Shown here piece by piece: positions 6,811 to 64,000 of a DNA stretch of 64,000 nucleotides; position 1 is the first letter of the stretch, and the number at the start of each line of letters is the position of its first letter. The translations under genes were made by a program, and so were the position numbers. The DNA comes from Selaginella moellendorffii (Eukaryota > Plantae > Lycopodiophyta): the NCBI RefSeq assembly GCF_000143415.4, contig NW_003314262.1:4586389-4650388 (forward strand). Reading direction: 5' to 3'. Below the pieces are notes generated by a model that saw only the letters and a program-made list of their open reading frames with translations, ran no database searches and was not told the DNA's origin.

Positions 6811-8249
6811 ATGAAGTTATAAGCATAAATATTGTCTATATTTTAGTGTACAAAACTATGGATAAGTTCATGGATGAAGCCTTCACAAAGATTCATTGTG
6901 ATGAGTTATCTAAATGCATAAATAGGGTGGCCAACTAGATGAAGGATAGGGGTCTAGAAAAATTCTTCAAAACTATATCAAACTTTATAGACCTATAGGA
7001 AGGCAGATTGTTTCTTTAATTATAGGATCCTATAAAACTTGCTTTCAAAATGGATGAAGGGGATATTAAGATCACTCAAGATTTTATTTCTAAGCTTTTT
7101 ATCTCATCATAGAACTAGATAAGTGGAATTGGAGAGGAGTAGTCTTTCCTAATAAGCTCAGACAAGGATGTGTTCACTTAGAATAGAGGGAAAATACATC
7201 CCTGGGAAAGATTCATCTTTATACTAGAGAAACATTCATATATCTGAGTGCTTTCTTATAAGCGACTAAATTTTCCATTCTACTTTAGTCACTTAACCAC
7301 ACCTTCAACCATTTGGAGGAGTCTCACTCACAACCTTCGTAAGTTCTATTTTGGACTTAGGGACTTGTAAGCCCCAAGAATGGCATCCATACCACTCAAC
7401 CATTGCACTTGGTCCAAGTGATCCACATGTCCGATCCCATGACCGACACCTCAAGATACGACCGACATACCAGCCCGTTACGCTAAGGCCATGCCCATTC
7501 ACTTTGGTCACATAGGTAGTCAACCACCACCTACATCGTAGTCTCATCTCTCCAAAACTGGGCCATCCATCCATGAGTGACCATCCTAGGTCCACTCTTT
7601 AGCATCTTTAAAATGCCTACAAACATAAGGAATAGCCTTCCCCAATATCCTTTTTACAGTCTCTACTAAGTCCCTTTTCTGTCCATGGCCGTGTTCGCCA
7701 ACACTGCCACTAGGACAAGGCCCACAGGCCCAACCACTAAATCCCACTGTCCTCTGGGACTTCCTCATTATATGACCGTATCATTGGTCACTACACCAGA
7801 GGACCATTCCTCTTCCTTTCCATAATCTGGGACTTTGGGAGAACATTTCGGAACACCGTGGCCTTACGCAAGCCTCATGGGTACTCTCCCCACCTTCCAC
7901 CTTTGGGTGCTCTAGCCATGGGTTTAGAGCGAGGTTCCGTTGAGCCACGCTAGGTATCCAAATAGGTAATGCTACCCACACTTGGACTGAGAGCATCGGC
8001 CATTCGATCTCCCAAGGGAGCTAGAGCCGGCTCTTGAACACTTCACTAAGTTACCCCATTTGTTAGTCCATACTCACTCTAGGCTTGGACTTCCCAGTGG
8101 TTATCCCATACCCAACACTGGGTATAGCCTTCCTGGGCCAAATTGGCCTTTCCTGGCTAAACTGGCTCCACTGGAATCCTCCCTCTACTATACTTTTGGA
8201 GCTCACCAAACCCCCAAGGGTCTGGGAGACGAACGCTTTGGGCTTTCAC

Positions 8250-8748
8250 CCTCGGACTCAAACTCAAACTCGGACTCAGAGTCAGACTCGGACTCGGACT
8301 CGGACTCAGCCTCAGCCTTGGTCTCAGCCTCGGTCTCGGTCCCAGTCCCGATCTCGGTCTCAGTCTCGGTCTCGGTCTTGACTTCGGACTCCTTCTCGGA
8401 CTCCATCTCAGGTCCACCTTGGACTCTATCTCGGACTCCATCTTGGTCCATCTCGGACTCCATCTCAGGTCCATCTTGAACTCCATCTCGGGTCCATCTT
8501 GGACTCCATCTCGGACTCCATCTCGGGTCCATCTCAGACTCCAGCTCGAGTCCATCTCAGACTCTATCTCAAACTCCATCTTGTTCCATCTCGGACTCCA
8601 TCTCGGTCCATCTCGGACTCCATCTTTGGGTCCATCTCGGACTCCATCTTAGGTCCACCTCGGTCCATCTTGGACTCCATCTCATATCCATCTCGGACTC
8701 CATTTCAGACTCCATCTTGGGTCCATCTTGGTCCATCTCAGACTCTTC
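8250..8748. repeat. Tandem 6/12-bp minisatellite inside LTR (GGACTCCATCTC / GGGTCCATCTC units)
   Basis: Periodic array, directly visible; produces spurious SD/SP-rich ORFs in several frames. Confidence 0.92.
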
Positions 8749-10141
8749 CATGTGTCATGTGTTGGTCCTCTTGTGTCCCTTTTCTAGAGACTCACTTATT
8801 GCTCGCTTGGTGCTTGTTCCTCAAGCATTTCATTGGGAGTTCCACTCCTACTCTCGACCTTTCAAGTCGGAGCTTTTAGTCCAAACGTGTTACGCTTGTT
8901 TAGCTTTTGCTTCGGCCACTACCATGTGGCACCCTTTCAGCTCCATTTTGGGGCTTAGGGATTTGTGTCTCACAACTCCAACACCCACAGACGAAGTTCA
9001 ATGTCCTTATCGAACGATAAATTATTTTATAAAGTAATACCAGCATGTATTACCCTTCCTATCCTTGGCACCTAGCCAATATTTGTCAAGGGTTGGACAT
9101 CGAAGGCTCACCCTGCCTTGTCCATTCTCTAAGGAGCATAATCTCTCCAACTTAAAGACTTATTTGACTATTTGTGGTGGTTCTCTCCTTTTATTAGTTT
9201 AGTTTTTGCTAAACCGGTTAGAGACACTTTCTCTATCTTGATCCCACTACTCATTCTCGAGTAATCTTAGTTTCTATCAATATAACCATTCCTCTTTGGA
9301 ACTTTTAATATTGACTTCTCGAAGTCAATTTCCTAGGTGTCTCCGACACCTTTCATTGCACATATTGTGCAAACTCCACTTCTCCATCCTAAAAAGTTCT
9401 CTACTTGAGGGCACCATCCTCCTCTTTTCTATTTTGTGCTATCTTTAGCACTAAGTTCCAATTATCATAAATTGTGCTATAAAGCTCTATTTCGTTAAAG
9501 TGGGATTTATTTAGTAAAATGGGACTAGGTACAAATTTTCAAGTATTTGAAAATGACGTGAAATTATATGTTTTTTGTCCAGGGGCTAGACATATCTGGG
9601 GCATGGTGACTAGCGCGGTGACTTTGTGTCCAGACTGAGTCCATCTGGTTGTATAATAAATCTCATTGTCAAGGTGAACAAGCCGAATCTGAAGCTAAAG
9701 AAGAGCGATGGCATGCGCGCACACACTATTTGTTTGTTCATTGAGCGTGTGGTGAGCTTTCCAAGATGAACGTCATTCCTATTAGCCAAACATATAACTT
9801 AATGGTGAGAACATTTAGATATTATTCAATGTTATCTTTTTCTAACGAATCTAATTGTGAAGGTGTAGCAAGAGGCATTGCTAGTCTGGAGAAGTCATTT
9901 AACTCATTTGACCCTTAGTGTATTTTCATGAAACTAAATAACATTCATATTATTAAGGAATTTCTCTAGTACCTTTTTTTTACGACATAGAGGCTTGCAT
10001 TTCTTTCAAAGGTGATTTAGTAAAAGGCCTGAGGGCACATGCCATTCTATTTCTCAGACTGGTATTAAGATATACTAGTGCAAAGGGAAAAAGGTATTTG
10101 GTGATCAAGTAAATGGCATGAGGGCACACGCCATTATAAGC

Positions 10142-10400
10142 CTAAGCGCTAGTGGACACCTCCTTTTTGGTACTCTCAGCGGTACTATCATCCTTCTCCG
10201 GGTCAGTTGTTTTGCTTTGGATTGTTGTCTCTGATGTTACTGGGGCATTTTCGATAGTTGTTAATGTTGCCGTTTGTTCAGAAAAATGATCACCTGGAGT
10301 ATAGTACGAGGAGTTTGGAAGACTTATATATTCTACATCTTCACCTATCTCCTTCTCCGTCTCCTTTTCTGCCTCACTTACAGATTTTGTGCTTGCCATG
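10142..10400 (-). CDS. Possible small S/T/E-rich exon inside transposon, function unknown
   Basis: MASTKSVSEAEKETEKEIGEDVEY... is open in otherwise AT-rich sequence; no recognisable motif. Confidence 0.25.
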
Positions 10401-11193
10401 AGAACGCTCTTCACCCTAAAATATGGAGTTCGTTGTGTTATAAAAGGAAACCAACACACACGCTGCAAGGGAATGATGGTACATAAAGCACGTAAGCCCA
10501 CAATATGGGTTTATGTGCCATTAATATGGGCCACACGCCATATTATTAGATTTATGCACGTGTGATTGGTAAATGCATATGTCACATCATCTTTGTTTTA
10601 CCTCACACACTATATCAGGCCTAATGAACCATATCACATGTGCGCACATGCTATATATATGGAGAAGTATTATGCAAGGATAGAAAAATTCAATGCATGA
10701 TTGTGGAGAGCAATGGCATGAAGCCACATGCTAAATAACATTTTAGAGAAAGAATTAAAATAGAAACATGCAAACAGTACTGAGTGGACCAAGACTTAGA
10801 AGTGCACAATTGAATGAGGTATTTCTAATAAATATTTCACTCACCTCATATAGGAATGGCTACCACTCTCAAATGGCGTATCGCCTCATGCCATCACCTC
10901 GCAATTTGTTATAACAATCCGATGAATTCATATTCGGCTTGTTCACCTTGAACTTTAAGTAAGATTTGCTAGAACAACTAAGAATTTATACTTGTTATTT
11001 GTATCATCTCACCTAGGAATGGCATAAGGCCACATGCCATCACGCCTCCTCTGATTCAGATTCGGATTGTTCACCTTGAAATAAAATACATTAAAAACTT
11101 AGTAAAAGAATATTAATGAATCTCACCTTGAACCCAGGTTATGAATGCTCTTGCTGCATCTCTTGCATGGTCTGGCAAGGTGATGGTGGCACT

Positions 11194-14181
11194 CTACTTC
11201 CACATCCAACCATGCACAACATTATCCACCGATATGCTCATGCTGGGATCCCTTGGATTCAGCACCCATCTCTTTTCTAGGCAATCCTTCGTATATCCGG
11301 AACTTGGCTTGAACCACTCCACAGTTACATTGAAAGAGTTAGTTTCCGCATCCTCCTCTGCATCAGTGATGCAGCGCCCCACCCATTTCATTTGTTTTTT
11401 ATTACTAGGTCTGACAAGCACGACCATTCCTTTGCAGACCTGTACTGGATTGAATGCTGAATCCGGCTTCTTGTTCCTCGGCCCACAATAGTGATCCTCA
11501 ACATCGTTATCTGTCACTGCATTTCTAGAGGACATTGTTCCGCTACTATCTGGTGCTCTGGGTTCTGGCCAAAAGGACTCTTCCAATTCTTCATATACAA
11601 CTGGCCCATTTTGGATAGCAGATATAATCTTCTCCCAGTATTCGAGCAAAGGCTTGCACCTCTGAAAATAGGATTCTCCACCAAACACCAACCCCCTCTT
11701 CCAGAAGGCAATATGCTGTCTAATCCCGGCCACTATACTTTCCTGGTCTTTGAGTCCATTCGGGTGCATCGGCCATGGGGAACCCTGAGGAATCATAGGT
11801 TCCCCAGTTATGGGATCTCTCTTGAAGAGTTCAATGCCGTCCACTGGCAGCCACACTGTGTCCCATTCTCTCATCTTGTACCTCATCACTAGAGCACCGT
11901 CACGCATGCTGAAATGAAACTGAAGAGGCTTGGAGTGGCCAATCAGCATTTCGGATCCGTCCCTGATGTAGCCTCTTACAAACCCCTTAAAGTCTGGAAC
12001 CTCTGTCACAAGTGCAGCTTCAACAGTGCCTTTGATGCAATTTTGGAATTCATCGTAGAGTTGTGGGAGGGTGAGGACATTGGATCGCCGGAGGGACTCT
12101 GCCAGGTGACTGAACATGGCATCGACATCTTCATGAGTGTGCCCAACCATGAGAAAGCCAAGTGTAACCGTTTCAAATATGCCTTTGGCAACAAGCATCG
12201 CCAAGTACGCGAAGATGTACATGTTTTTGTTCTCACTGCCAGCATTGTCTGTTTGGAGCAGAAGATGGGGTGGAAGGCCATATCGGCCGCAAGAACTTCC
12301 TTGAGATTCTACTTCGTTTAGATGAGGCTGTGCATTCACCGGGCGACTAGCCTCGTCGGAATGGCATGAGGCCTCACGTGATAACCCTACAATCTGACGG
12401 CCAACATATTCACTGGGATGGCATGGGGCCCCACGCGATACTGCAAGCCTTTGCTCCTCCTCCAGCTGAACCCTGTATGGGGTTCGATCGACAAGGGCCT
12501 TATGCAAGGGTTGGCCGTTCAGCTCAGTCTGCGCACTTTGCAGAGACCTTAAGTGTTTTGCTAGGGATGCAATCATCATGTTTGCACCCCCGCCACCCCA
12601 TAGAGGTACAAAGAAGTTCCCATAGTTCTGGGCACCATGCCCATGAGCGATTATGCCAAACAGAGACACAGGCAGCTGCATGGATGAAGAGATTGCCTTG
12701 GGGGCAGGATTGAGTCGAGGTAAGCACGTCTTTTTCTGGTCCATTTTGTCGTGGATGATGCAGAGGTAAGAGTCAGGTCTCTCCATGGAGAGAATCCTGT
12801 TATGATAATATGTAGTCCTGCAGCTTCTCTGCTCGATGTTGTGGTCGAGCTGCCTTCTAACCAACGTCTCTCGCTCTTGAGTGCTGCAAGAATTCTTCGA
12901 CAAAACCATTTTGATAGCAGTGCACTCGTCACACTTTGAAAAGCTGGAGTACTTTCCTATACTCACATCCCTGAACCTGTTGCTCCACAATCTACTAAAT
13001 CTAGATTGGCTCAGCTTCCTGTAGCCATTACTCTGGAGTTCCCGATTCACATCTTCCAATATGGCCCCCTTGGTATACATGGAAGGGAGAACTCGTTGGG
13101 TGTCTCGTGTTCCATCTTCCAAGAGGCGGGTTTTATGTGGTTGCTGCTCGCTATATGTCTCGACAAACCTTTTGAAGATTGCCTCTCCATATACAACATG
13201 ACCCCTGGTTTTGTACGTACCGTCGTTCCCATGGGCTGCCTGTTGAACCCTTTGTTCCTCGAACTCAGTTTTGATTCTGTAGAATGTGGTTCGAGGGACT
13301 CCATAAATGATTCTCCATGCCTTCATGCAGACCAAACCCCTCTGGAAGACCATGCCCCCCACCTGATGTTCTGAAGCATCAACAGATGACCGTAATGCCT
13401 CATACACAAAATTGCGAGCTGCCTTCCAGGACAATGTCTTGTATCTTGCTCTCTCCTCTTCAATAGCATCCCAATCAGCATGTTGACAGCACCTCTTCTT
13501 GCAACAAGCAACTGTCGAGACCATTCGAACCTCCATCGCCATTTTCTGCCTTTTCGGTTCGTTGCTCAGATCCCTTTGGCTGCGCTTTAGGAAGGTGTAC
13601 TTTCTTTTCCCATGAAGAGATGTTTTGTCATCAATTGTAGTGGTGTTTGATTGTGAATCCTTCACATTCTCAAACACTAAGTGCCTCAATTTCCACCGCA
13701 CAATGCTTCCAATAGTCAGACTGTTTTCTTTTGTGTCAACAACCTCTAAAATCGCAACTCCAATATCATCCCAACCCAATTCTTGATTAGCAACCGCATC
13801 TCTTGGATCGACAACTGTGGCTAAGCCCTCAGCTACCACCTCCCCCTCGGGGTTGTTTAGAAACACCTTTGCCTGAATCCATGTAGCACGGTTCTTAAGA
13901 TCCACGGAGGGAACATGCGTTGCACTTGCGCTGTCCCCAACATCTGCTTTCCTCTGAAGATTTTTCAAGGCAACAACAACATTTACCCCGACAACCATCT
14001 CTCCTCGTTCAATAGCAACCACATTCCTATCGAAGACAGTCTCTACTGATATAGCAGCATTGACTTCCCCAAGCCTTTGACAGTGTATAACAAAGTTCCG
14101 ATCCATAGACACAATGGTCCCTTTTGCAACTCTCTTCCCACCATTCAAAATGTAAACCTTTTCCCTAACCCTGAAGGCCAT
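11194..14181 (-). CDS. DDE/RNase H-fold transposase (Sola1-like) with N-terminal TNP1-like repeats
   Basis: 995-aa ORF. Contains a CDEC zinc motif, CIIHDKMDQ, LQTDNAGSENKN and FLMVGHTHEDVDAMFS catalytic-type motifs, and lies between TIRs. Confidence 0.85.
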   Translation of the reverse strand: MAFRVREKVYILNGGKRVAKGTIVSMDRNFVIHCQRLGEVNAAISVETVFDRNVVAIERGEMVVGVNVVVALKNLQRKADVGDSASATHVPSVDLKNRATWIQAKVFLNNPEGEVVAEGLATVVDPRDAVANQELGWDDIGVAILEVVDTKENSLTIGSIVRWKLRHLVFENVKDSQSNTTTIDDKTSLHGKRKYTFLKRSQRDLSNEPKRQKMAMEVRMVSTVACCKKRCCQHADWDAIEEERARYKTLSWKAARNFVYEALRSSVDASEHQVGGMVFQRGLVCMKAWRIIYGVPRTTFYRIKTEFEEQRVQQAAHGNDGTYKTRGHVVYGEAIFKRFVETYSEQQPHKTRLLEDGTRDTQRVLPSMYTKGAILEDVNRELQSNGYRKLSQSRFSRLWSNRFRDVSIGKYSSFSKCDECTAIKMVLSKNSCSTQERETLVRRQLDHNIEQRSCRTTYYHNRILSMERPDSYLCIIHDKMDQKKTCLPRLNPAPKAISSSMQLPVSLFGIIAHGHGAQNYGNFFVPLWGGGGANMMIASLAKHLRSLQSAQTELNGQPLHKALVDRTPYRVQLEEEQRLAVSRGAPCHPSEYVGRQIVGLSREASCHSDEASRPVNAQPHLNEVESQGSSCGRYGLPPHLLLQTDNAGSENKNMYIFAYLAMLVAKGIFETVTLGFLMVGHTHEDVDAMFSHLAESLRRSNVLTLPQLYDEFQNCIKGTVEAALVTEVPDFKGFVRGYIRDGSEMLIGHSKPLQFHFSMRDGALVMRYKMREWDTVWLPVDGIELFKRDPITGEPMIPQGSPWPMHPNGLKDQESIVAGIRQHIAFWKRGLVFGGESYFQRCKPLLEYWEKIISAIQNGPVVYEELEESFWPEPRAPDSSGTMSSRNAVTDNDVEDHYCGPRNKKPDSAFNPVQVCKGMVVLVRPSNKKQMKWVGRCITDAEEDAETNSFNVTVEWFKPSSGYTKDCLEKRWVLNPRDPSMSISVDNVVHGWMWK

Positions 14182-14348
14182 TCTAAAAGTGCAGAAAAGA
14201 AGTTAAAACCATACAAAAAATGATTGGAGAATGGCCTAAATCATAACATACCAAACAACCTCAATAGCATGAGGCCACATGCCATTATTCAAACATGCTA
14301 TTGACACCCACGTGAAATTTCGCATTCACAAAATTGGCATGAGCCCTC

Positions 14349-17300
14349 ATGCCATTAGTGGTACCAGCTGCTAGCTTTTCATCTGTCAGCTCTAATTGTT
14401 GTGCATTTCTGAACAGGCGAGGAATTGCGTTCTTCTTCCAGCCACTGTCAATGTGGATGCAGAGAAGGGGGAGGAGCTCACCAGTTGGACTTTCGGGATG
14501 GAAGGCGAGGATCTGAGGCTGTACAACACAGATGGTGGGAGAAAAGAATGCATGGGGATCCTCATCCAAGTGACAGACACTCCATGCAGTTCCATGCAAG
14601 AATATGGACTGGCACTTGTGGTAGAGACAGTGTCTGCCTTCAAGATCCACCTTGCACATCCTAACAGCTTCCCGGAGGGGGGCAGCGGCTATGAGGAATT
14701 CCTAGAGGGAGCTAGGGAGAGGTTGTCCAGGAGGCCCACAATTTCAAAGACGCTGCGGGTCTATGAAGATCACATGGAATCCACGGACCTCACCTACGGC
14801 GATGTTCAAAAACTATATTCCAACATTGAGCCGTTGAGAGTGCCTCCAATTCGCGAAGCGAAGGGGAAGGGGGTCGATCTGGAAACTACCCCGAAGCAGA
14901 AAAGGGTGGTCAAGCTCAAGCCGACGTTCGACTCTCCTGCTCAATAAAAGAAGCTACTTGGTGATGCCATTGCCTCGGATTCGAACACTACACCCACCAA
15001 AAATAAGAGCCACAAAGAGCAGAAAGAGCAAGAAAAGGCAGCAAAAATCGTCGCAGATAATAGTACTTGTTACTATTCCAACAAAGTATATACAATCGAC
15101 GTGAGCCGTATCGACATCCAAAGCAAATACAACCACAGGCTAGTATCTGATGAGTGGGTGGAGAAACTGAAGCAGAAGATGCTGGCAAGTCCAGTAACAC
15201 CCGCCATCGCAGACGTGATCCCCTACTACCGAACAATGAAGGGCGAGACGAGGTTTCCAGACTTGATCAATAAGAAGGTGTTGGACGATCAGAACATCCG
15301 GTTCTATGCCGTCTCCGGGCAGCATTCTAGCTTGGCGATGCAAGAGATAGTTGTGGATATTATGATGGGCGAGGAGGTGAAGAAAGTCTTCAAGACAAGA
15401 GTTGTCCACCTGATAAAAGGCAACTCGCCCCTCCGATCTATCATATACATCTCCCACGCGCAGAATGTCAAGCAAGAAACGTGCTACAAATCGGGTCTAC
15501 ACGAGACATTGGCACGAACACGGAAGCTCTGGGTTCAACTGAAGAAGCCACAAAAACCAGGACAAGGACGTGCACTAGCAACTAGCGCCTGGCAGGTAAG
15601 CCTCGTTGCATGTGGCATAGCATGTGGCCTCACGCCATTTCCATTGCAGGAATTCTCGAGTCTTCTCTCGAAAACACTGGGGGTCAATGACACACTCAGC
15701 ATCCATAACATTCTACTCGCGACAAAAGTTGTTTTTGACAAATGGGTAGATGTGCTGAGGAGGTACCATGACGGGGAGTTGCTAAACTCAATGGGTGTGG
15801 AGGACAGCCGGAAGCCCAATGATTTGAAGCTCAACGCCTTGCGTTTCTCGCGGTCTCTAGACGACGACGACCTTCTGACAGTGGCTAATGCTCTTCTATG
15901 TGGTGAGGTAGTCTTCAACAAGACCAAAATGACTCTCGGCAATATTGTGACATACGAGGACTTGTGCACGACTCTGAGAGCTCGTGCGCTATTGAAGGAT
16001 TCGATCTTCGAGCAAGTGGCCGTGGAGAGGGTGAGCATCGACACCACGCAAGAGATGATGGAAGCGCTGGAGTTGTCAAATGAAGACATCGACGAGTACG
16101 TGAAGGGGGCCCCCAAGTTCATCGATCTGCTGCGGGATGCCACGAAAAGTAAAGCTGAGAAGTTGGATCAGTATCCAAATTTCATTAAGAGGGATGTCGA
16201 CCGCCGACTTCAGAAACAGCTCAACCCCGCAGCAGAGGCCTATCGAGAACCTTACCGGGTATACGTGAATTCGGATGAGGATCAAAGGTGGAGGAGCATT
16301 GTTTCCCGCAGAGATGAGCAAGTCAAGAACATCTTTTGTGTGATGGACTTCACAAACGAGGAGATCACTCATGCAGACAAAGTCAGCTCCATCATTGACT
16401 TAATGGTGGGACTTGCGAAGGTGGAATCTTCAGTATGATCTACGACTCCGAATCCTATCACAAGTTCTGGAAAGCCTTGAACGAGGTGAAGGCTCGGTTG
16501 AAAGGCAAGGAGATGCGGGAGATCCATGGGATAATGGCTAAGAAGAAGATACCAACGAATGTCCGCATCTTCACACTCGCCCTTGTTATTGGTCCTGCAG
16601 CAGAGTGGGACTGGAGTGACTTCCCAGCTTCGTTCGACAAGGCCGATCGAATTGATTTGAGGGAGGTCAATTTACCCGTGCCTGAGGAACTGAAGACGGC
16701 TATGGAGCTTTCGAATCCAAAGAAAGAAGAAAGCTCCAGGTGCAGCATGGGAAATGCTCAGTTGGGTCTTCAACGCAATAGCGGGTGGGTCACCTGCTTC
16801 CGACTCCAAGAGCAAATGCATTGTCGAGTACAACTGCGGCGGACTATTCTTTTGAGCCGCACTACTCAAGGGTGTCCCGTGTGTTGCGGTGACAAACTCC
16901 ATTGAAGAGGTGACTTCAATAGAGTATATAATTACAGTTGCCAAAGAAAAACAGTATCTTCTCTGCGAACCTGGTGAGTACGCACTTTAAGTTTAAATGT
17001 TATCTCACAAGCTCTGTATGTAGGAGCGTGGCCACCCCCAGATGCTGAAACGGCATTAACAGCTACTGTTGAAGATACCCATGTTGGGCCGAGCTCACAA
17101 CCTGCACAAGGTAAGGTCACGTGAGGCCTCACGCCATTTTGATTATAGATCATTGTGAATATTCAGACACGAGGACTGAAAAGCACACTGGTGGCGCGTC
17201 GAAGAAGGACAAACAGACAAGCAATAGGAAAAAAGGAGGTACAAATTATATTTGCAATGGCGTGTGGTCTCATGCCATTCCTTGCAGGAGACACTTCTTC

Positions 17301-17948
17301 AAAGGCAAAACAGGCAAGCACCAGCCAAGCTCAAACTGACAGTGGTCATAAAAAGCGAAAGCACATTGGACAGTCGTCGGGATCAGAGGCGTTTGATTCG
17401 AAAAGGAAGAAGGGCAACGAAAAGATGATAGGTAATGCCTCGCGGTTATGGCGTGTGTGCTCATGCCATTCATTGCAGATCAAGGGCTGAGTGAAAGCAG
17501 CCAGTCACCACCTCCTGACTCAGATTCCTATAGCGGACTCCCCTTCCCCAATCTCAATGGAGAGGTACAATGGATGAGGGATGCTTTTCAAGTCAGGGCC
17601 ATGTTTTTCTCATCTCGTCGTCTTTGAAGGGTGCAAGAACGTGCAGAAACCATGTTAAGACAGTCGGGTGAGGATACAGTCCTAGATCATGCACTAAAAC
17701 AAGCTATGGATGTCTTGTATTTTGAGATGGAGACTCGGCCAGATGATTTTCCCAAGATGGTCCTGGAAGAACAAGCCATCCAGCCTGAGCAGCCTATGGA
17801 AGAAATGCAGGAGGGGGATGAGGAGCCAGAGAAAGATAATGAGCAGGAAGAGCAGAAGGACGAAGAGGAGGACGAAGAGGACTTGGATGGTCCTCACAAT
17901 GGTGACGATCACAATAACGACGACGAAGATGATGACGACGATGGCTAG
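14349..17948 (+). pseudogene. Transposon accessory gene, 5' part: ParB/Srx-like domain, degenerate N4/N6 methyltransferase-like fold, acidic region
   Basis: ORFs 14396-14947 and 15101-16438 are in frame across a single TAA. Contains the ParB-like FYAVSGQHS motif, frameshifts at ~16435 and ~16725, and the segment CIVEYNCGGLFF*AALLKGVPCVAV. Short GT-AG introns at 15596-15649, 16974-17023, 17111-17148, 17239-17287 and 17432-17478. Confidence 0.6.
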
Positions 17949-18279
17949 CCTGAGGTGGCCAAAGAGCAGCGGAGGAAGGTCATACAAGACAAACCATCAG
18001 GTAAATAATAGTACATCCATTCCTAACCTTTTACCATTTCTAACATTGTCCATGTAGGTCGCAGAGCAAATGGTAAGTAGAGATTATTCAGTTGAATTAA
18101 GATACAAACTCTAGCCTTTAGTGTCGAGGAAGGATAGTGCCAAGCAAGGGTCGAAACGTATGTCCAATCCTTTAGAATCAGCAGTGCGCCCAAGTGATAT
18201 CGGTCCTAGTTCCTCAATAGCAGTTGATGGTAAATACAGTATAGTCGATTCAATGTGCTAATGAGTTTGTTTTTAGTAG

Positions 18280-19774
18280 CCAGTAGGGAGGATACCATCT
18301 CAATCGAAGGGAGATATTTGGACATGCATATGGATCCGCCAGTGGACTCTACTTGCCTGCAAGAGTCATCAGAGCTGGTGGAGGCTACTATCCATATCAA
18401 TGCCAAACAAGCTGACCATGCTCCACTTGATGCTGCCCATACCACTGAGTCAATCTTGTCCACGTATCCAACTGACGGTGACCAGGCGCCATTGGACCCG
18501 CATGAGGCCGCCCCAGCCGCCGAGCCGGTCGTATCCTCATTTCCAACGGACTCAACGTGTGCCCAATCGTCTGACTACGCGCCGTTGGAACCTCCCTACA
18601 CCGCCCCTGCTGCCTGTTCGGTCATGTCCACTTTGCCAACGGAGGCACCAGCTGAAATGGCGTGTGATCACATGCCATCGGAACCACCCCATGCCACTAT
18701 TGAGCCAGTTGTACCAAAGTCTACAGCTGAAATGGCATGTGCCCACACGCCATTGGATGCAATTGACCCCACATGGCAAAGGAGAGTATTTCCGCCCTTC
18801 ACGTTTCCTCGACTAAAACCCTCTCAACAACCATCGGGAGCACCATTCGCTAATATTGTAGATGGTAAAATTGACTTGTACCATTTTTTATGCTGACGCA
18901 TTTCATTTCAGAGTCACGGCAAAGGTACTGTATCGTTTTTGATCTAAACGGTGTCCTTTTCTCCCATGAGCGTGGCTCGTCCTCGAATGTCACTGCACCC
19001 TCCAAAGCCTGCAGTCGCAAGTTGGTCAAAAGAGACAGATTCACATTAATCACACGGGAGAAACTGCGGGATCTAATAATGACCATGCGACACTTAAAAC
19101 AGAGGGCCGGGTTCAATTTGCAATTGGGAGTTTGGACATCCATGATGCGCCACAATGCATTAACGTTGCTACAGATGATGCACGATCAGACGCGAGTAAT
19201 ATTACCATTTGACTTTCTCCTAACGTAGGAGGATTGCTTGACTATGGTCCATGTGAGGGGTAGCAAGCCCATCTTCGTCAAGCCAGAGGCTGTAGTGATG
19301 AACCGGACTGCTAGGTCAAGTGAAATCCTCATCATCGATGACTCGCCGATTAAAACTACAGCGAACATGCACACATATGCAGTGCACCCCATCTCTTGTA
19401 GTATGGAAACTAGGGAGAAGAAACCGTATGTTTTGGGGGACCTTGCAAAACGGCTTGGAGCGATGGTGATAGAGAACCGGCCAGTCCAAGAGGTGGCTGC
19501 AGAAATCAACCAAATGGCAGATGAAACGGTATATCAGAAGCCATTTGATCGGACAGACACCAGTCATCATTTATGGCATGTATATTGTCTAGCCAAGCAC
19601 TATCCGCATCTCCATAATCTGCTCAACCGGATGGGTTCTTCAACCACTGAACATGAGTGTGGACGTATTAGAGAAGAGATGGCATTACTATTGGGTTTAA
19701 ATCCTGATAGTGTGGAGAGTGATGAAATTCCAAAATTATTGTATAGGCGTTGGAGGCAAAAAATAACAGTCTGA
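18280..19774 (+). pseudogene. FCP1/NIF-type HAD phosphatase-like domain preceded by a Pro-rich region (probably the 3' part of the accessory gene)
   Basis: Motifs CIVFDLNGVL, GVWTSMMRHNA, KPIFVK and ILIIDDSPIK..N..AVHP. Intron 18865-18911 joins it in frame to ORF 18255-18896. Internal TAG at 19226-19228. Confidence 0.75.
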
Positions 19775-22700
19775 GATGGCATGTATTTATTTAAAAATGT
19801 AACTTATTATGGCATGGGGTTCCATGCCATTGTATTAATATTAAAAGACAATTCTTTGAGAGGATTTACATTATACTAGAAGTGTTACAGCATGTTATTG
19901 GAAGTCTATGAAGTTGTTTTATTAATAAGGGGAAAGTAAAGATTGAATAGGGACTTGGGCTCCACCTAGACTCAGAGCAACTGAGCCAATATTAAAAGGA
20001 TGGAAAGAAATTGGACGACGATGACAAGGAGAAGAGAGAGGTGAAGCAGTGGCAGGGGGAGGAGAAGTGATTGAGTAGACATTTCCTTGTTTAAAATAAA
20101 ATGGCATGTGCCTCAATGCAGTTGAATTTTGTTATATTTATATACTATATAAAGGTTTGGAAACCTTATTTTACAAGTGGGATAATGACAATTCCCACTT
20201 TAACGAAATAGAGCTTTATAGCTGTCCACAGCCGTATCATTTGGCTACTTTGCCACTCTCTCCCTTAGAGGTTTCACCTTTGCCAAATTAGAGCATTTGA
20301 GAATCCATCCTTAGAAACACACTTCCTTTCCCACAATCCTTTAGCATCCAACACATTAGTGTTTCTTGCCTAACTTTGCCATTTGGATTCCTTCCAATGA
20401 ATTTCATGGCCCACACTTGGCCACTAGCGGTTTGCTTCTATCCATTGATTATTGCACCAAGTAACATAAGATCACTACCTCCATTCTCGAGGTATCCTTT
20501 TGGTTCCATAGCAAAGGCTCTACTTGTTGAGTCTAGAGGGTACTCACCCCTAGTACGTCTCTTTAGCATTTTTTGTTATAGGCTTCGTCCACGGCCCAAC
20601 TTTGCGACCCTCCCATAAGTCTTTCCTAAAGATTACTTTCTTAGACTCATTATACCATTGTTTTGGCACAATTAATTTCCCTTTTGGTGTCCTTCCCATT
20701 TGGTCACCTTGACCAAGCCACACTATTATCAATAGTTAAAATCAACACTTTGAACTAAGAATTATGTTTCTTAACCCAAACAAAGACATTATCCTTGTTT
20801 AGCCACAAGATCACCTAATGATCTCATCTTGATCCCTTAACAGATACCAATAAGAACTAGGTCTTCTAGACTTTTTAAATTATTGACTATAACCCCAGGG
20901 GCATCCCCCACACTTGGCGGTGTGCCCAAGCCAGCCCTTCCAACTAAGGATCTATCTTTTTGGCATCACATGTTTCCTTCAGTTATTCTCCTCCAGATTA
21001 AAAGGATAGCTTTGCACTTTCTACCATGCCTTAGCAAGTATTCTTAAGGATGAACTTACCCAATAGCCTAGAGAGTGGTTCTTCAATCCAGGTACGCTCA
21101 CTTTGTAATCCCATACACCGAGATTATCGTTGTTACTTATGGGCCTTTCTATGCCCATCACTAGCCTTGCCAAAATCCTTTTTTTGGCTTTGTCCAATTC
21201 AGATAGATAGACTACTCCCATCTCCGCAACTTTGAACATTAGATAGCACTTACTACCCATCATTTGTTAAAGACTTAGTCCCTCAGGTCTTATCTAATGC
21301 CTTCATAACACCAAATACCACCTCTTGGTGTTTTAGAGTGTTTGGGTGTTCTAATGATAGCCTCTTTCAATGAGCATTCCCTTTACGACATTGACTTGTT
21401 ATATCGTAGCATAAGCAATTTATCCCCCATAAGGATACATCCAACTTCCCTATCCCAATAAAAAGTTTTAAGTAGTTACTTTTTATTAGTTTAACCAATT
21501 ATTTTGCACTTTTTGCTTAGTTGCCTTATAATGGTCAAGTCCTACAACTCATTGCTGGTGTTTCCACACCTCCATCATTATTTAGGTCACTACACTCCAA
21601 CTGCATGCCTTTTAGCTTAGGCTATGCCATTTCTATTTCCATTAGAATTCCTTTGGGAAGGGGTTCTCATGAACCTGCCAACTTGAGCTCAAGGCATCAC
21701 GCCTTGGTGCATTTGATGTCTCTACACCATCAGCTCCACGAGTCTACCTTTATGACACTTCGTACTTGTGTCTAGGTCCTTGCCAGAATCAATATAGTTC
21801 TTTCTCATGCCAACTATTTATTAATACTGCACCATAGAGTTTACACACAACTTTGTGTCAAAGTTGTTTTCTTCTAGGAACACCTTTCCCATGACTTTAG
21901 TATAGCATATTCTGCCATCAATGAGATACCCACTGTTCTCATACTTGGATTTTATGATCCTCCCTATCTTTCGTGGGGCACAATACACCTCAATCCAAAT
22001 GCTTTTACCAATCCCTTAGGACCATTCCTTGACTTTACATGAGTCATCTAGTATTTTTGGATTTTGCTAATCCAATGACCTGTAAGGTCCTATTTTTGAG
22101 GTGCTAGCTCGTTGGAATACAACTTTGTGTATTCATGTCTTACTCACAAGGACCATCTTTGCAAATGTTACTCTAACACATAATTATTCCTCGTTTTCTA
22201 TAGGCTACTCTCGCTCCTTAGGACTATCCATCCATATGATGAGAATACCGTCTCATCCTTTGAGCACACCCCCAACTTCTTGAGTTTATTCCAACATTTA
22301 TAAAAGGTAGCCCCGACTACCATTTCAATGACTCGTGTCTTCATCCATATTTGACCTTTCACAGTCATTAATTCCGGTCTCAAATTCATGAGCACAAGCC
22401 TCAACTATATGAGGATAATTTTGTGACTCCTTTATTGTTTTGGAGTCTCTATCTTTCCCATGATCCCAACTATAGTTGTTTACCACAACTACATTAGCCC
22501 ATTTGCTAAGTCAAACACTCATTTGGATCACATCCTCAACTCTCTAAGGAAAACCTTATACTATTCCTAAGATCCTAAAATCGTTCCATTATTGGCCTTT
22601 TTTTATCCACCACCTCATCTACAAGTTCACATATGAACTGTAGTGGAGAGCCATGTCTTCTCGACTTGCTACTCCCTAAAGATAGCCCCACTCCTAGGAC

Positions 22701-23439
22701 CTTCCGATACTAACACTAGTGGTGATATACTTGAGCACTAATAAAAGTTAGACTAAGGAACAACTTTGATACCAAATTGTAAGCGACTAAATTTTCCATT
22801 CTACTTTAGTCACTTAACCACATCTTCGACCACTTGGAGGAGTCTCACTCACAACCTCTGTAAGTCTTGTTTTGGACTTAGGGACTTGCTAACCCCAAAA
22901 ATGGCATCCATGCCACTCAACCATTGCACTTGGTCCAAGTGCTCCATGTGTCCGATCCAATGACCGACACCCCAAGATACCACCGACATACTAGCTTGTT
23001 ACGCTAAGGCCATGCCCATTCACCTTGATCACACCGGTAGTCCAACACTACCTACATCGTAGTCTCATCTCTCCAAGATTGGGCCATCTGTCCATGAGTG
23101 ACCATCTTAGGTCCACACCTTAGCATCCTTAAAATGCCCACAGACATAAAAAACAACCTTCCCCAATATCCCTTTTATAGTCCCCACTAAGTCCCTTTTC
23201 TGTCCATGGGCGTGTTCACCAACACTACCACTGGGACAAGGCCTACAGACCCAACCATGAAGTCCCACTGTCCTCTATGACTTCCTCACCACATGACCGT
23301 ATTATTGGTCACTACACTAGAGGACCATTCCTCTTCCTTTCCACAATCTAGGACTTTAGGAGAACATTTCAGAACACCGTGGCTTTATGTGAGCCTCATG
23401 GGTACTCTCCCCACCTTCTGCCTTTGGGTGCTCTAACCA

Positions 23440-23956
23440 CCTTACTCAAATGATGACAAAATCGTGTTTGTAATGTTATCACATGACGAACACGAGATAA
23501 AACATCTGCCACCACATTTGATTTTCCCAGACAATGCTCAATAGGAAAGTCCCCAAACTCCATGAGTTTGACCATCCAACAAGCTTGCCTAGTGTTCAAC
23601 TCCTTCTGTATGAAAAGATACACAAGTGGTTTGGGATCTGTCAACACTACGAACACTGCACCATATAGATAGTGTAGCCACGTCCACAAAGCATGAACAA
23701 TAGAGAGTAACTCTTGCTCATATATGGAATAGCGTTGCTCCGCAGAATTCAAGGTTTGACTCTCATATGCAATAGGTTGTCCCTCTTGCATGAGAACTCC
23801 TCCCAGTGCATAACCACTCGCATCGCATGTCACCTCATAAAGTTTCGATGGATCAGCAATGTGAAGCACTGGAGTCTTGCTCAACAATCGTTTCAGCACC
23901 ACAAAACTCTCCTCTTGTGGCTTTTTCCACTCAAATGGCACATTCTTGCGTAACAA
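23440..23956 (-). pseudogene. Ty3/gypsy RT-RNase H fragment
   Basis: FEWKKPQEESF..VTCDASGYALGGVLMQEGQPIAYES..EQELLSIVHAL..GKSNVVADVLSR. Confidence 0.9.
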
Positions 23957-28878: not shown

Positions 28879-29058
28879 TTGTCATTGGAACTTTTCCTTG
28901 GACTCTAATTTTTTATATCTTTCGGAGACTTTAGATAAAGACACAGAAGAAGTTGGAATACAACACTCCCAAGATTTTTTTAATCGCGCACAGCACTCTC
29001 TCCCACACATTAGGGCTCTTCCGCGACAATATTTAGGGTTCTTCGCAGTTTCCTCCAA

Positions 29059-30075
29059 ATGAGCTCCTTTTCTCTGGCGCAGCACCGCCGGCTGCTCCTG
29101 CTGCTACTGCGGCCGCGATCAGCGCGGGGTGTGAGCAGCTCCTGCGCTCGATTGGCCGATGACGATGAAAAGAAGGTCTCGTCGAGGCTGTTCCAGCGGC
29201 AGCAAGTGATGAATGCGAGGGAAGAGGACGCGTTGGAAGAGGCTACGGGGCCACCCCCAAAGGTTACAACGGGTGAGCGTGTTTCTCTTGTTTTCTGGAG
29301 TATTTTCCTTGTGTATGGTTTCTTACTCTCTCGCTTTGCTTGTCTCTTTTTTCTTTTGCGCTTGAAAGATCATGTTACGATGAGCTTCGCCAGGAGCAGC
29401 GGTGCTGGAGGCCAAAACGTGAACAAAGGTACGTGGTTTGCCAGTTTCATTGATCCTTCCCTCGTACCAAATTTTCCTGTGGCAGTGAACACCAAGGTGG
29501 ACATGCGTTTCAAGGTCATGGCTGCTCAGTGGCTGCCCCTCAGAGCCAGGCTCAAGCTGCTTCAAACGGTCGGTCATGTTTAGAAAGAAGTGAGAGAGCT
29601 GTGCTCGTTTCGGCGAAACGCTTGCGAACTCATCGTTTTTGTAGGAAAGGAACAGGATCAACAATGAGGGGGAGCTTGTTGTGACATCGACAAAGAACAG
29701 GACACAAAAGTACGTAGTGCTTGCATTTTTCTGGCAGAGCTTCACGACGGATAATTGGCAGGGGAAACATAGAAGACGCGCTTGAAAAAATACAGGTAGG
29801 TGATTGATAAAGAAAGGTTGTGAAGCTTAGCCAATTTTTCCAACTCTTGCAGGAGATAATTGATGAAGCATGCTATGTGCCGCCGCCTCCTTCGGAAGAG
29901 ACGAAAAATCGCGTCATCAAGTTGTATGTAGTGCTGGCGATTCCTCCGTAATCCATTGTAAAGGACTGACTGCTGGTCTCTTGTGGATTCCAGAGCTGCT
30001 GCTGAAGATCAGAAAAGGCTCCAGATAAAAAAACAAATTGCCAACAAGAAATCGTCACGGAGGGAACGTTTCTAG
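29059..30075 (+). CDS. ICT1: Organellar peptidyl-tRNA hydrolase, ICT1/ArfB(YaeJ)-type RF-1 domain protein, ~7 exons
   Basis: Transit-peptide-like N-terminus, then SFARSSGAGGQNVNK|VNTKVDMRF (GGQ motif), RINNEGELVV, NIEDALEKIQ and a basic tail. GT-AG introns; stop TAG at 30073-30075. Confidence 0.9.
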
Positions 30076-41344: not shown

Positions 41345-43014
41345 GAATGGAAGCCATCTTGCATAGACTACTACAAGAGGGCAAATCACTGAACGTGGAG
41401 CTGAAATTATGATGAATCTTTTGTTCAGTCAAGAATTTCTTCTGAGGTAACTTCAAAGCTCTGGAGGTTCTTAAACAGCTTTTGCTGATAACCAGCGTAG
41501 CAAATGACGCGTTGGAGCAGTATCCGACTTCTTTCGTCCATGTACTTGAAGCGTTTCATGACTGTCCAAAGTGGCAACATCTTCTCAGATATGAAAGTAG
41601 CAGCGGATCTTTATTCCCTGTCACGCTGACAGCATGCGGTTACATGCACAGCGGAGACAGAAAGTGCCTTCGTGTTCTTGAGGGCCTATTGACAAAGCCA
41701 AACACCGCTTAAGTCAGCTGCTGCTGTAGACTGGCTTTAGCATCTGGGATTCGAAAAACTTCTTTGTCACTCGGATAGTTCAGATAATGGAGAGAAAATG
41801 CAGTCAGAAACATCTAGAAATCTTTGACTGCTCTTTTTGTTCCGGATTCTTCGTCATCATGGTTACGAAGTCTCTCCAGGTCGCCTAGAGTGAAGCTTTT
41901 TATACCATAGTTTTAACAGGAAGACAAGGATTTTCATGTGGTAGACGTACGGCATCAGGAGCTATCTTTCGTATCACATTTTCTCTTTTCTACTGAAAGC
42001 AGAAAATGCTAGACTCGACTCCTTATTCTCGCAAACGAAGAGGTTTGCCTTTCCTATTCCGATGTTGTTTTGCTAACATTTTATTTACAGACGACGTTTC
42101 CATGGTATGAGGTACATATGCTATAACTTCCAGTGAAACTTCCTATTAAAAATTTTCCAGTGAACGTACTGGCCATCACAAAGTCCGACTTCAATGCTTG
42201 CCAGAAGATATATCAGAAGGATTTGCAGCGTTTTATGAGGTAGCTGATATTTTGCCTCTCGCTTATCCAGCGCGTGAAACGCATGTGGAACGAAGAGTGC
42301 GACTTTGAACGTCTGGGTTTTGCCCAACACAAAGACGTGTTTTGCTTTTGTACTGCTGCTGCAACCATGTTCCAGCCGGAACTCTCGATGGCTCGCACTG
42401 TCCGGGCACAGACGAGTGTTCTTACGACAGTCATTGACGACTTTATGGACACGCACCATACTCTCAACAATAATTTTAGCAGGCCATAGAATATTTTCGT
42501 CGTTCACAGTGCAAAAGTTTCCGAATGTGCTTGGTTTAGAAACACCGAAGATCATGGAATGACCCCGATGCGTTTTTTTGCGAGGTAGAATGGCCAGCCT
42601 CGAAGAGTACATGGAAAACGAAATCATGTCTTTCACGCTGGATCTTATCTGCTTTCTTTTTCCTGGTTGAGAAAGTTGAGTCGTTGGTTCTAGAAGATGA
42701 ATGTACCAGAGGACCTCCACGACTGGGAGGCTGCACAACGACATCCAAGGCTTTCATGTAAGGTTTTATCTTCTCGTTTTGGATGTTTAACCGAGCGAGA
42801 TCTTTCACCATTTCCATTTACACGAAGGAACAACAGGGAAGGACGCGGTGGTGGAGATGAGAAAGATTTTAATGGTCCAGAGTAGACTAGTGCCCAAGAG
42901 ATGCCAGAGAACGTCATGAAAATTCTCAACTGTGTGTAAAGTAAAGGCGATGGATACAGCACGGACGAGCTACGAGGCCACGTCAAGAAAGTTCTTCATG
43001 CCAAATTAGAATAA
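41345..43014 (+). pseudogene. Terpene synthase copy 2 (5'-truncated pseudogene)
   Basis: Colinear with copies 1 and 3 from MEAILHRLLQEGKSL to ..KLE*. Many deletions and frameshifts; DDFMD is retained. Confidence 0.88.
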
Positions 43015-63046: not shown

Positions 63047-64000
63047 CACAATCAAGAAGCTGTTTGCAGGCGTGGACAATGCTTACAGCTTTTCAGCTTA
63101 CAACATGGGATGGATCACATGAATACCTTATTGTTAGGCACTAGATCAAGATAATAGGATAAAAAAAAGTTTGCAATCAAGTGATCAAGATCCTAACATT
63201 GGTATTGAAGCCAAATTCAATTCTTGTAACTGATAAGTGGGCAAGAATATTTTAAAGGAATATTTAACATGATCTAGAAGTTTGGTAGACCAGGTGACAT
63301 GAGTATGATTGCAGATGATCATTTTCTAATAAGGGAAGGATTGTTAAGCACTAGGTTAGGATAATAAAATAAAGAAAAAGCCTTACAATCAGTTCTTTAA
63401 CCAATTGACTTAGGCTGTAATGGATACAATTTTAACACTTATACTCATAACCTAGAACTTGGGGCCCCAATTTCCTCGGAGCTTGGAATGGATCAAGATC
63501 ACTAGTCCACAATGGACTTAGAGCTGAATTATAGAGATCTTTTGTTGAACATATATGTAAATAATCAGGAATTTCTTCTGAGGTATAACTTCAAAGCTCT
63601 TGAGGTTCTTATTTACAGCTTTGTCCTAATGACCAGCGTATCAAACGAGTTGGAGCAGTATCCGACTTCTTTCGTTCATGTACTTGAAGCGTTTCATGAC
63701 CGTCCAAAGTGGCAGCAACTTCTCAAATATCAAAGTAGCCGCAGATCTTTATTCTCTGTCACGCTGATGGCATGCGCGTACATGCACACCGGAGACAGAA
63801 ATTGCCTTCGTTTCCTAAACAGTGGCCTATTGACCAAGGCAAACAAGAACCGAAACTTTCCAAATCGCCACTTAAGTCAGCTACTGCAACTTGTAGACTG
63901 GCTTGAGCATCTGGGAATGGAAAGGTTCTTCGAGAAAGAGATCAAGCAAACGGTGGTTAAAGCTTTCAGGTAAACTTCTTTGTCACTCGGAAAGTTCAAT
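63047..64000 (+). pseudogene. Terpene synthase copy 4 (pseudogene, continues past window end)
   Basis: TIKKLFAGVDNAYSFSAYNMGWIT* followed by an LTR insertion and an internal deletion; then EQYPTSFVHVLEAF..LEHLGMERFFEKEI. Confidence 0.85.
63132..63437. mobile_element. Solo LTR inserted in TPS copy 4
   Basis: TGTTA...TAACA termini with a perfect 5-bp TSD CTTAT (63127-63131, 63438-63442). Removing it restores the TPS exon. Confidence 0.85.

Follow-up and report, generated by a model that had tools for sequence, protein, structure and literature searches.

Why would a transposon of a land plant carry a protein that combines the fold of a bacterial partition protein with that of a DNA methyltransferase, when the catalytic motifs have been lost? 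The question is raised by a 10.7-kb DNA transposon (9482..20216, no strand assigned) of the lycophyte Selaginella moellendorffii, which lies in a stretch of 64,000 nucleotides (contig NW_003314262.1, positions 4,586,389 to 4,650,388) that is called the window here and supplies all coordinates. Its accessory gene is on the plus strand, from a splice acceptor at 14417 to at least 16973, and is divergent from a DUF7869 transposase gene. An earlier note on this DNA had described a transposon-borne ParB-like domain fused to a degenerate N4/N6 DNA methyltransferase-like fold. Both folds, whose joint absence would have refuted that note, were obtained in the present analysis, and the identity and folds of the accessory protein are considered very probable. 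A ParB-type DNA-binding domain, 19 palindromes and a published algal pairing of the same domains go beyond what had been noticed before. The reading preferred here, to which we give a probability of roughly 0.45, is that the protein would bind these palindromes in a non-catalytic, parS-like form of self-recognition.

The ParB-Like Part

The structure of the window's own protein (15050-16435) was modelled from a 12-sequence alignment with moderate confidence (predicted local distance difference test, pLDDT, 69; predicted template modelling score, pTM, 0.54). The model predicts a ParB/Srx N-terminal domain with the fold of cytidine triphosphate (CTP) hydrolases at 15065..15490, followed by a helical domain at 15497..15979 that is interrupted by an intron and matches the DNA-binding domain of ParB and KorB. 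Both domains are on the plus strand. Foldseek placed Noc, ParB and KorB first, with a best E of 1.3e-3 and none under 0.001, and all rows listed to rank 17 are ParB, Noc, KorB, PadC or pNOB8 ParB. In a wide VIA search, the top eight rows all had the ParB/Srx fold (Z 9.5 to 6.1; among them PadC at 9.5 and KorB at 9.0), and the next unrelated row scored 4.6. The N-terminal domain was aligned with Caulobacter ParB (7bm8_A) over 98 residues, with a Z of 10.6 and a root-mean-square deviation (rmsd) of 2.2. A second VIA search reached Z values of up to 11, and its top 14 rows were again all ParB, Noc, KorB, PadC or pNOB8 ParB. Twelve of these cover model residues ~11-310, which include both the N-terminal and the helical domains; over model residues 11-310, the ParB-parS chain 6t1f_B was aligned at 181 of its 190 residues (Z 9.1, rmsd 5.3) and the KorB chain 8qa9_B at 190 of its 209 (Z 8.8, rmsd 4.5).

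Sequence profiles did not reveal these relationships. Pfam named neither a ParB-like nor a methyltransferase-like domain. PHROGs returned only a weak ParB-like match (E 0.2), and apart from chance matches, of which DndE (E 0.08) and a cytochrome are examples, a PDB search by sequence gave nothing. With residues 40-215, the ESM Atlas returned sponge (0.97) and mollusc (0.96) clusters, DUF3723 (0.95) and ParB_N (0.93, 35% of members). The likeness of the ParB-like part (15065-15590) to ascomycete DUF3723 clusters (0.95 in the Atlas) is an observation in its own right. Among the papers listed, DUF3723 is named mostly in those on Starships, so it too may represent an accessory protein of ParB-like type.

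The Box II motif of the window protein reads SGQHS and contains no arginines. According to the excerpted text of PMC8367383, CTP binding by Caulobacter ParB requires R60, R103, R104, N136 and R139; that of PMC11790492 states that R117 is required in KorB. When the plant family is compared by motif position, not by residue-level superposition, the positions of R103 and R104 are occupied by histidine (8/8) and by serine or threonine (8/8), and arginine is missing at the R139 position in all eight sequences. The equivalents of R60 (7/7) and N136 (8/8) are kept. To judge from these residues, a canonical CTP clamp is unlikely in the plant family, and some nucleotide contact by the ParB-like domain is possible.

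The Methyltransferase-Like Part and the Loss of Catalytic Motifs

The second fold belongs to a beta-class N4/N6 methyltransferase-like domain at 16250..16973 on the plus strand, with the position of motif IV (VMDFT) at 16340 and that of motif I (IVEYNCGG) at 16820. The peptides on which the earlier note had relied were all found in place (IDVSRIDIQ at 15095, FYAVSGQHSS at 15302, NIFCVMDFT at 16328 and IVEYNCGG at 16820-16843). That note had also placed the 3' segment in a shifted frame. The frameshifting is real, but the segment 16727-16975 is in the same frame as the open reading frame (ORF) 14948-16438; a piece in a second frame (~16432-16722) lies between them, so there are two frameshifts, one near 16430 and one near 16722-16726.

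As the window sequence is broken in this part, the fold was modelled on a relative, P0017 (6 sequences, pLDDT 59). With this model, Foldseek returned M.RsrI first (E 5.9e-7), followed by CcrM, MboIIA, BceJIV, HpyAVI and the rotifer N4CMT. VIA gave a Z of 14.8 to M1.HpyAVI over 171 aligned residues, and its top 11 rows were all beta-class or type III Mod enzymes. The P0017 fold is a permuted Rossmann fold in which motif IV precedes motif I. The window segment 16727-16975 was compared with the C-termini of P0002 and P0017, giving z values of 7.5 and 5.2 (0 and 1 of 500 shuffles reached the score). No score was obtained against P0020 and P0011, both of which lack that part, and the segments 16250-16429 and 16432-16722 gave no score alone against any of the four relatives. 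The homology of the motif-I segment ties the window domain to the P0017 fold.

The catalytic motifs had been described as eroded, and this is borne out. The [DNS]PP[YFW] motif was found neither in the window nor in any of the five relatives examined. An aspartate ends the motif IV strand in 5/5 aligned sequences, and the residues after it are unconserved within the family. At the position of motif I, three of the five aligned sequences have EYNCGG, EYGCGG or DINTGG, and the other two are without that part. The motif I that binds S-adenosylmethionine follows the pattern FxGxG, which is absent at this position. Judged from the sequences, the motif erosion is family-wide and not due to the decay of the window copy, because PPY is absent and the second Box II arginine is replaced in all relatives examined.

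It has been proposed for algal proteins that a methyltransferase guided to its element by ParB writes a protective mark, and a diverged but still active N4-cytosine or N6-adenine enzyme might do the same here. The whole beta-class fold is retained (Z 14.8, 171 aligned), the aspartate of motif IV is present in 5/5 sequences, and all three sequences that have the motif I part show an acid followed by three residues and two glycines. This explanation is nevertheless improbable: PPY, which in the account given by PMC10406627 (DPPY/SPPY) positions the target base, is absent in 5/5, FxGxG is absent as well, and the residues after the aspartate are not conserved even within the family. The domain is probably non-catalytic. 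The function cannot simply be the writing of a mark, since in three plant lineages the folds have been kept but neither the methylase nor the CTP motifs have survived.

Extent, Relatives and Decay of the Accessory Gene

The first visible exon (14418..15595, plus strand) encodes an N-terminal region with a premature TAA at 14945 and then the ParB-like domain. It is followed by an in-frame intron of 54 nt (15596..15649, plus strand), which has GT-AG ends and contains one palindrome. This intron is supported by gaps at that point in the alignments of three relatives (P0002, P0011, P0025), and P0001 and P0007 end at the same W-x-V border. Further downstream, probable low-complexity and acidic exons (17024..18896, plus strand) and three short palindrome-bearing introns (starting at 17111, 17239-17287 and 17432-17478, plus strand) are indicated by splice signals in the sequence.

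A NIF/HAD phosphatase-like domain is found at 18875..19774 on the plus strand, with a match to PF03031 (E 0.018) below the cut-off and a stop at 19226. The fern model P0025 contains the ParB part, the helical part, the N-terminal half of the methyltransferase and NIF/HAD (E 7e-17) in one gene. Given this layout and the weak NIF match in the window, the same ParB-to-HAD architecture is likely here, and the NIF/HAD-like domain is probably the C-terminus of the accessory gene. The HAD-like motif (18897-18930) reads DLNGVL in the window and DLNGLL in the fern relative, and not DxD; it is possibly a third altered active site.

Relatives of the accessory protein were collected with phmmer against 1.84 billion representatives, which gave 12 hits, of which P0004 and P0008 were dropped as repeats or chance. 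The named relatives come from S. moellendorffii itself, the liverwort Calypogeia fissa and the fern Adiantum nelumboides, and identity across lycophyte, fern and liverwort is 19-32%. A word-index protein search found no further relative, and no prokaryotic relative was named among the phmmer hits. In the phage collection, P0017 had no matches and P0009 had one chance match. As genes of this kind are present in algal transposons, the immediate source may have been another eukaryotic element.

The window copy is dead, with two premature stops (TAA 14945, TGA 16853) and the two frameshifts. In the part of the variant rows listed for other copies (40/221 substitutions and 12/33 indels), none falls at these stops or frameshifts. 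Other copies differ from the window mostly by A>G and T>C (90/121 places in X1, 151/212 in X2 and 59/67 in X19). This is the pattern expected from the deamination of methylated cytosine, through which the window copy seems to have decayed.

A Palindrome Confined to the Element

A motif scan found 19 copies of a 22-bp palindrome, ATGGCRTG-N6-CAYGCCAT (9708..20122, no strand assigned). They start at 9708, 10024, 10113, 10633, 10713, 10873, 11019, 12361, 12418, 14264, 14334, 15617, 17116, 17257, 17448, 18657, 18732, 19809 and 20101. When up to two mismatches are allowed, 16 copies lie inside the element and none in the other 53 kb of the window; with up to three, there are 19 inside versus two outside. 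Thirty Markov simulations of each of two orders produced at most one palindrome. Seven copies are located between the left end and the stop of the transposase. Of the others, two are in the transposase and two in the gap separating the genes; introns of the accessory gene hold four and its low-complexity part holds two, and the last two are close to the right end. The intronic copies stand directly before the acceptor (one of these introns is backed by relatives and three by splice signals only) and are 2.7-4.6 kb from the nearest end of the element. Domain-coding exons make up 59% of the element and hold only 2/19 palindromes (p 1.5e-5, with the regions chosen after the sites had been seen), and both of these are within a transposase insert that is variable. 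The element has family-specific motifs in its non-coding parts, as in VANDAL/VANC systems.

The arms of the palindrome are conserved, and the spacer and flanks drift. The variable position reads CA in 25/38 half-sites and CG in 11/38, so the palindrome holds a methylatable CG in these latter cases. Some copies share longer flanks, as shown by a 47-nt inverted pair (9669-9715 and 11033-11079). Such flanks, together with the dead state of the window copy, would fit an old cargo gene that has no role for the element, with palindromes that arose incidentally as an intron-like module underwent small duplications and inversions. It is hard to see, however, why the arms would then be conserved while the spacer and flanks drift, why related elements should have reached different palindromes of the same layout, and why invariant G, H, S/T and N residues and both folds should have been kept across three plant lineages. 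For this reason, the cargo explanation is regarded as quite improbable.

Proposed Self-Recognition and Its Alternatives

In the preferred reading, the intact accessory protein would bind the 22-bp palindromes through its predicted ParB-type DNA-binding domain, presumably as a dimer, like ParB on parS and KorB on OB. Since the Box II arginines are replaced, binding would occur without CTP-driven sliding. There is a precedent for this, because a CTP-blind KorB mutant still represses from a nearby site, as the excerpt of PMC11790492 describes. By recognizing the palindromes, the protein would mark and regulate its own transposon family, with the HAD-like domain and the methyltransferase fold, the latter probably inactive, as modules for dimer, modified-base or chromatin contact. 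As for the outcome, protection from host silencing in the manner of VANC would be likelier than repression, as the palindrome layout matches that of the VANC motifs. Anti-silencing as a specific function is, however, doubtful when taken on its own. Equally speculative, and unlikely as a complete account, is the idea that a partition module of bacteria became, in land-plant Sola-type transposons, a means of recognizing only their own family and of shielding the whole element from host DNA methylation. Such a system would consist of a CTP-independent ParB, a pseudo-methyltransferase and a HAD-like tail, with parS-like palindromes in the introns and spacers of the element as sites that co-evolve with the protein family by family.

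Several points weigh against self-recognition. The match to the DNA-binding domain is loose (rmsd 4.5-5.3 at best, Foldseek E >0.001, pTM 0.54), and the methyltransferase fold comes from the model of P0017 and not from the broken sequence of the window. In the annotation of the Selaginella relative P0002, the ParB N-terminal domain is missing, and which way regulation would go is guessed from analogy. Related transposases provide further points. Three hidden Markov models detected a plant-type ParB gene in none of 80 metagenome loci with related transposases, though these profiles have a narrow reach and the majority of the loci are short or truncated. Of these loci, several of them redundant, the 49 of at least 3.5 kb were kept for a palindrome scan and the 31 shorter ones were dropped. 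Four of the 49 (L048, L002, L063 and L049) have a palindrome cluster of their own with 5-11 copies; in the controls, 12 shuffles per locus reached 2-3 and five window control segments reached 2-4. The palindromes of the related loci differ from that of the window and from locus to locus. Pfam found no ParB domain in 71 tested ORFs (129 listed, from 29 related-transposase loci). When 334 of the 348 ORFs of related loci were run through hhalign against the ParB alignment only, one of the three profiles, the best probability was 2.4%.

These loci bear on a further explanation, in which the transposase would bind the palindromes, to bring the ends into synapsis or to activate its own transcription, and the ParB-like protein would recognize something else or bind DNA unspecifically. 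The transposase remains a candidate binder because 0/80 related-transposase loci showed a plant-type ParB gene, and palindromes are clustered close to the transposase in L048, L002, L063 and L049, in which no ParB gene was detected. In addition, five palindromes of the window element are 94-631 nt from an end, and sequence-specific activation by a Mutator transposase has been reported in a 2026 preprint (10.64898/2026.08.24.746577, known from an excerpt). The terminal repeats, however, are without the motif, 8/19 sites lie more than 2.7 kb from either end, including the four that are intronic in the ParB gene, and the probably complete element L046 has no palindrome cluster. Most related loci are also too short for an accessory gene. 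Binding by the transposase is considered rather unlikely, although the transposase is the chief rival to the ParB-like protein as the binder.

The Transposon and Its Surroundings

That the gene is borne by a transposon, as had been claimed, is borne out by inverted repeats, an empty site and the transposase. The element is bounded by inverted-repeat arms of 33 nt (9476-9508 and 20190-20222, 97%) and has the probable termini AAGC...GCTT. In contigs of the host repeat that lack the element, 9479 is followed by 20221 after only two letters. A 4-bp target duplication, TATA (left 9478..9481, right 20217-20220, no strand assigned), is probable and fits these joints; readings of 2 bp and 0 bp fit too and remain compatible, because the target is palindromic. 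A 3-bp TGT duplication, as in a CACTA-like element, was ruled out by the empty-site joints.

The transposase (11194..14181, minus strand) has an open frame of ~995 aa and matches DUF7869 (PF25273, E 1.6e-42). Its 43 relatives include named ones from a liverwort and from animals, and D478, D481, D645, D685, D687 and H681 are invariant in 18 sequences. Its motifs DN..NKN and GHT..D are probably Sola-like. The element is probably of the Sola1 class, because its termini and probable duplication resemble those of Ectocarpus Sola1-1, and Sola1 is listed for Physcomitrella. A supplement row of PMC12477816 gives the Ectocarpus Sola1-1 family AACCG-CGGTT termini and a 4-bp duplication biased toward terminal A, and the excerpt of PMC9033089 includes Sola1 among the elements listed for Physcomitrella. 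The window element is high-copy: 44,446 and 132,993 contigs (two runs of one sample) cover all 30 bins.

The intergenic gap differs between copies, with 138 letters in one contig versus 77 in the window. Loose contig ends are found at 14263 and 14364, beside two palindromes, and what looks like a splice acceptor stands at the start of both genes. A promoter or first exons may be missing from this gap in the window copy. At 9669-11079, a module of donor-like AAG|GTGAAC, spacer and palindrome is repeated in both orientations; a further spliced gene or an untranslated region with tiny exons downstream of the transposase is possible there. The same region contains a minus-strand ORF (10142-10510).

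Among the related loci, family-specific palindromes near the transposase were seen at L048:4724-5399, L002:643-1569, L063:2589-3186, in L049, and at L058:4510-5184 and L004:632-907. The palindrome of L048 is TTACGGACGCGCGTCCGTAA, with 11 copies. L046 (1-9819) is a DUF7869 element that, having terminal repeats of 519 nt, is probably complete. Three of its ORFs (808, 381 and 296 aa) are unexplained and another is Tudor-like; it has three palindrome copies, which is not a cluster, as shuffles reach four.

The transposon sits inside another repeat, being bracketed by 300-nt direct repeats (7256-7555 and 22777-23076, 90%). An irregular tandem array of 11-23-nt units (CTCCATCTCGGA) occupies 8251-8750. 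Nearby frames (23396-23956; 49014-53725) are, to judge from their translations, gag-, reverse transcriptase-, RNase H- and integrase-like. Probable host genes lie at 29014-29826, 42121-42753, 58122-58673 and 63506-63973. Their labels are presumptive, and include a GGQ-motif peptidyl-tRNA hydrolase-like exon, antisense P450-like frames and a terpene synthase-like exon.

Comparison with Known Systems

The fusion of ParB with a methyltransferase is itself already known. Excerpts of the literature report ParB-N6_N4 methyltransferase fusions from phages (PMC12704722) and ParB-HTH methyltransferases from chlorophytes and chytrids (PMC4738411). The literature covered, from which Repbase, Bao 2009 and Iyer 2011 fell outside, gave no account of the land-plant family, the dual loss of catalytic motifs, the HAD-like tail or the dispersed intronic palindromes. 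The window family shares its domain pairing with the phage fusions (PMC12704722, PMC4738411) and its beta-class fold with the rotifer N4CMT (Z 12.3; PMC10406627). As far as these excerpts go, DPPY/SPPY is kept in both of those, unlike in the window family, for which no phage sequence relative was detected.

Bacterial ParB-parS, Noc-NBS and KorB-OB likewise combine a CTPase fold with a helical DNA-binding domain that follows it, and with short inverted-repeat sites in the same replicon (PMC8367383 and PMC11790492, both in excerpt). In the plant protein, by contrast, the Box II arginines are replaced (GQHS), a methyltransferase-like domain stands in place of the C-terminal dimerisation domain, and no ParA partner was seen.

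Two 2025 algal genome papers propose, without a test, that ParB accessory proteins bind and modify their own transposons. One describes the PAG3/PAG2 genes of Plavaka elements in the red alga Bostrychia, which are ParB accessory genes beside tandem inverted repeats (10.1101/2025.02.11.637652, seen in excerpt). The window element resembles them in having a ParB-like accessory gene and inverted repeats in one element, for which self-binding is proposed there. It differs in that the Plavaka ParB is fused to a 2-oxoglutarate oxygenase, with a separate methylase gene and an EnSpm-type transposase, and in that the repeats form tandem arrays beside the gene there, whereas they are dispersed and partly intronic here.

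The other, PMC12477816, describes Sola1-1_Ec32 of the brown alga Ectocarpus, with a 1104-aa ParB-like and N4/N6 methyltransferase gene opposite the transposase, and also proposes self-binding. In description, the likeness is close. In both cases the accessory gene lies on the strand opposite to the transposase and has the same two domains, and both elements are giant transposons with terminal inverted repeats, a 4-bp duplication ending in A (a probable one in Selaginella) and termini starting with AA. The Selaginella element differs in its land-plant host, its HAD-like domain and the family-wide loss of the catalytic motif (an active enzyme is predicted in the excerpt), as well as in its dispersed palindromes, of which the excerpt makes no mention for the Ectocarpus element. 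The window locus offers a land-plant pair of protein and site, a predicted ParB DNA-binding domain and an element-confined 22-bp palindrome. Because it yields both a protein and a candidate site, the algal proposal of self-binding becomes testable.

There is a likeness in working to VANC, which, according to the excerpt of PMC5735166, causes hypomethylation and has its binding motifs in intronic and intergenic sequence. In both cases, a plant DNA transposon has an accessory protein and short, family-specific motifs that lie within introns and between genes. The protein and the transposase are unrelated, however, and the VANC motifs are 8-9 nt long, non-palindromic and tandem. The function of VANC is demonstrated, whereas for the window system a likeness in working is proposed and not kinship. 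If the anti-silencing reading is true, plants would have, besides VANC, a second sequence-specific system against silencing that evolved independently, a possible tool for targeted chromatin change and perhaps a branch of a wider class that includes the algal accessory genes and the fungal DUF3723 proteins.

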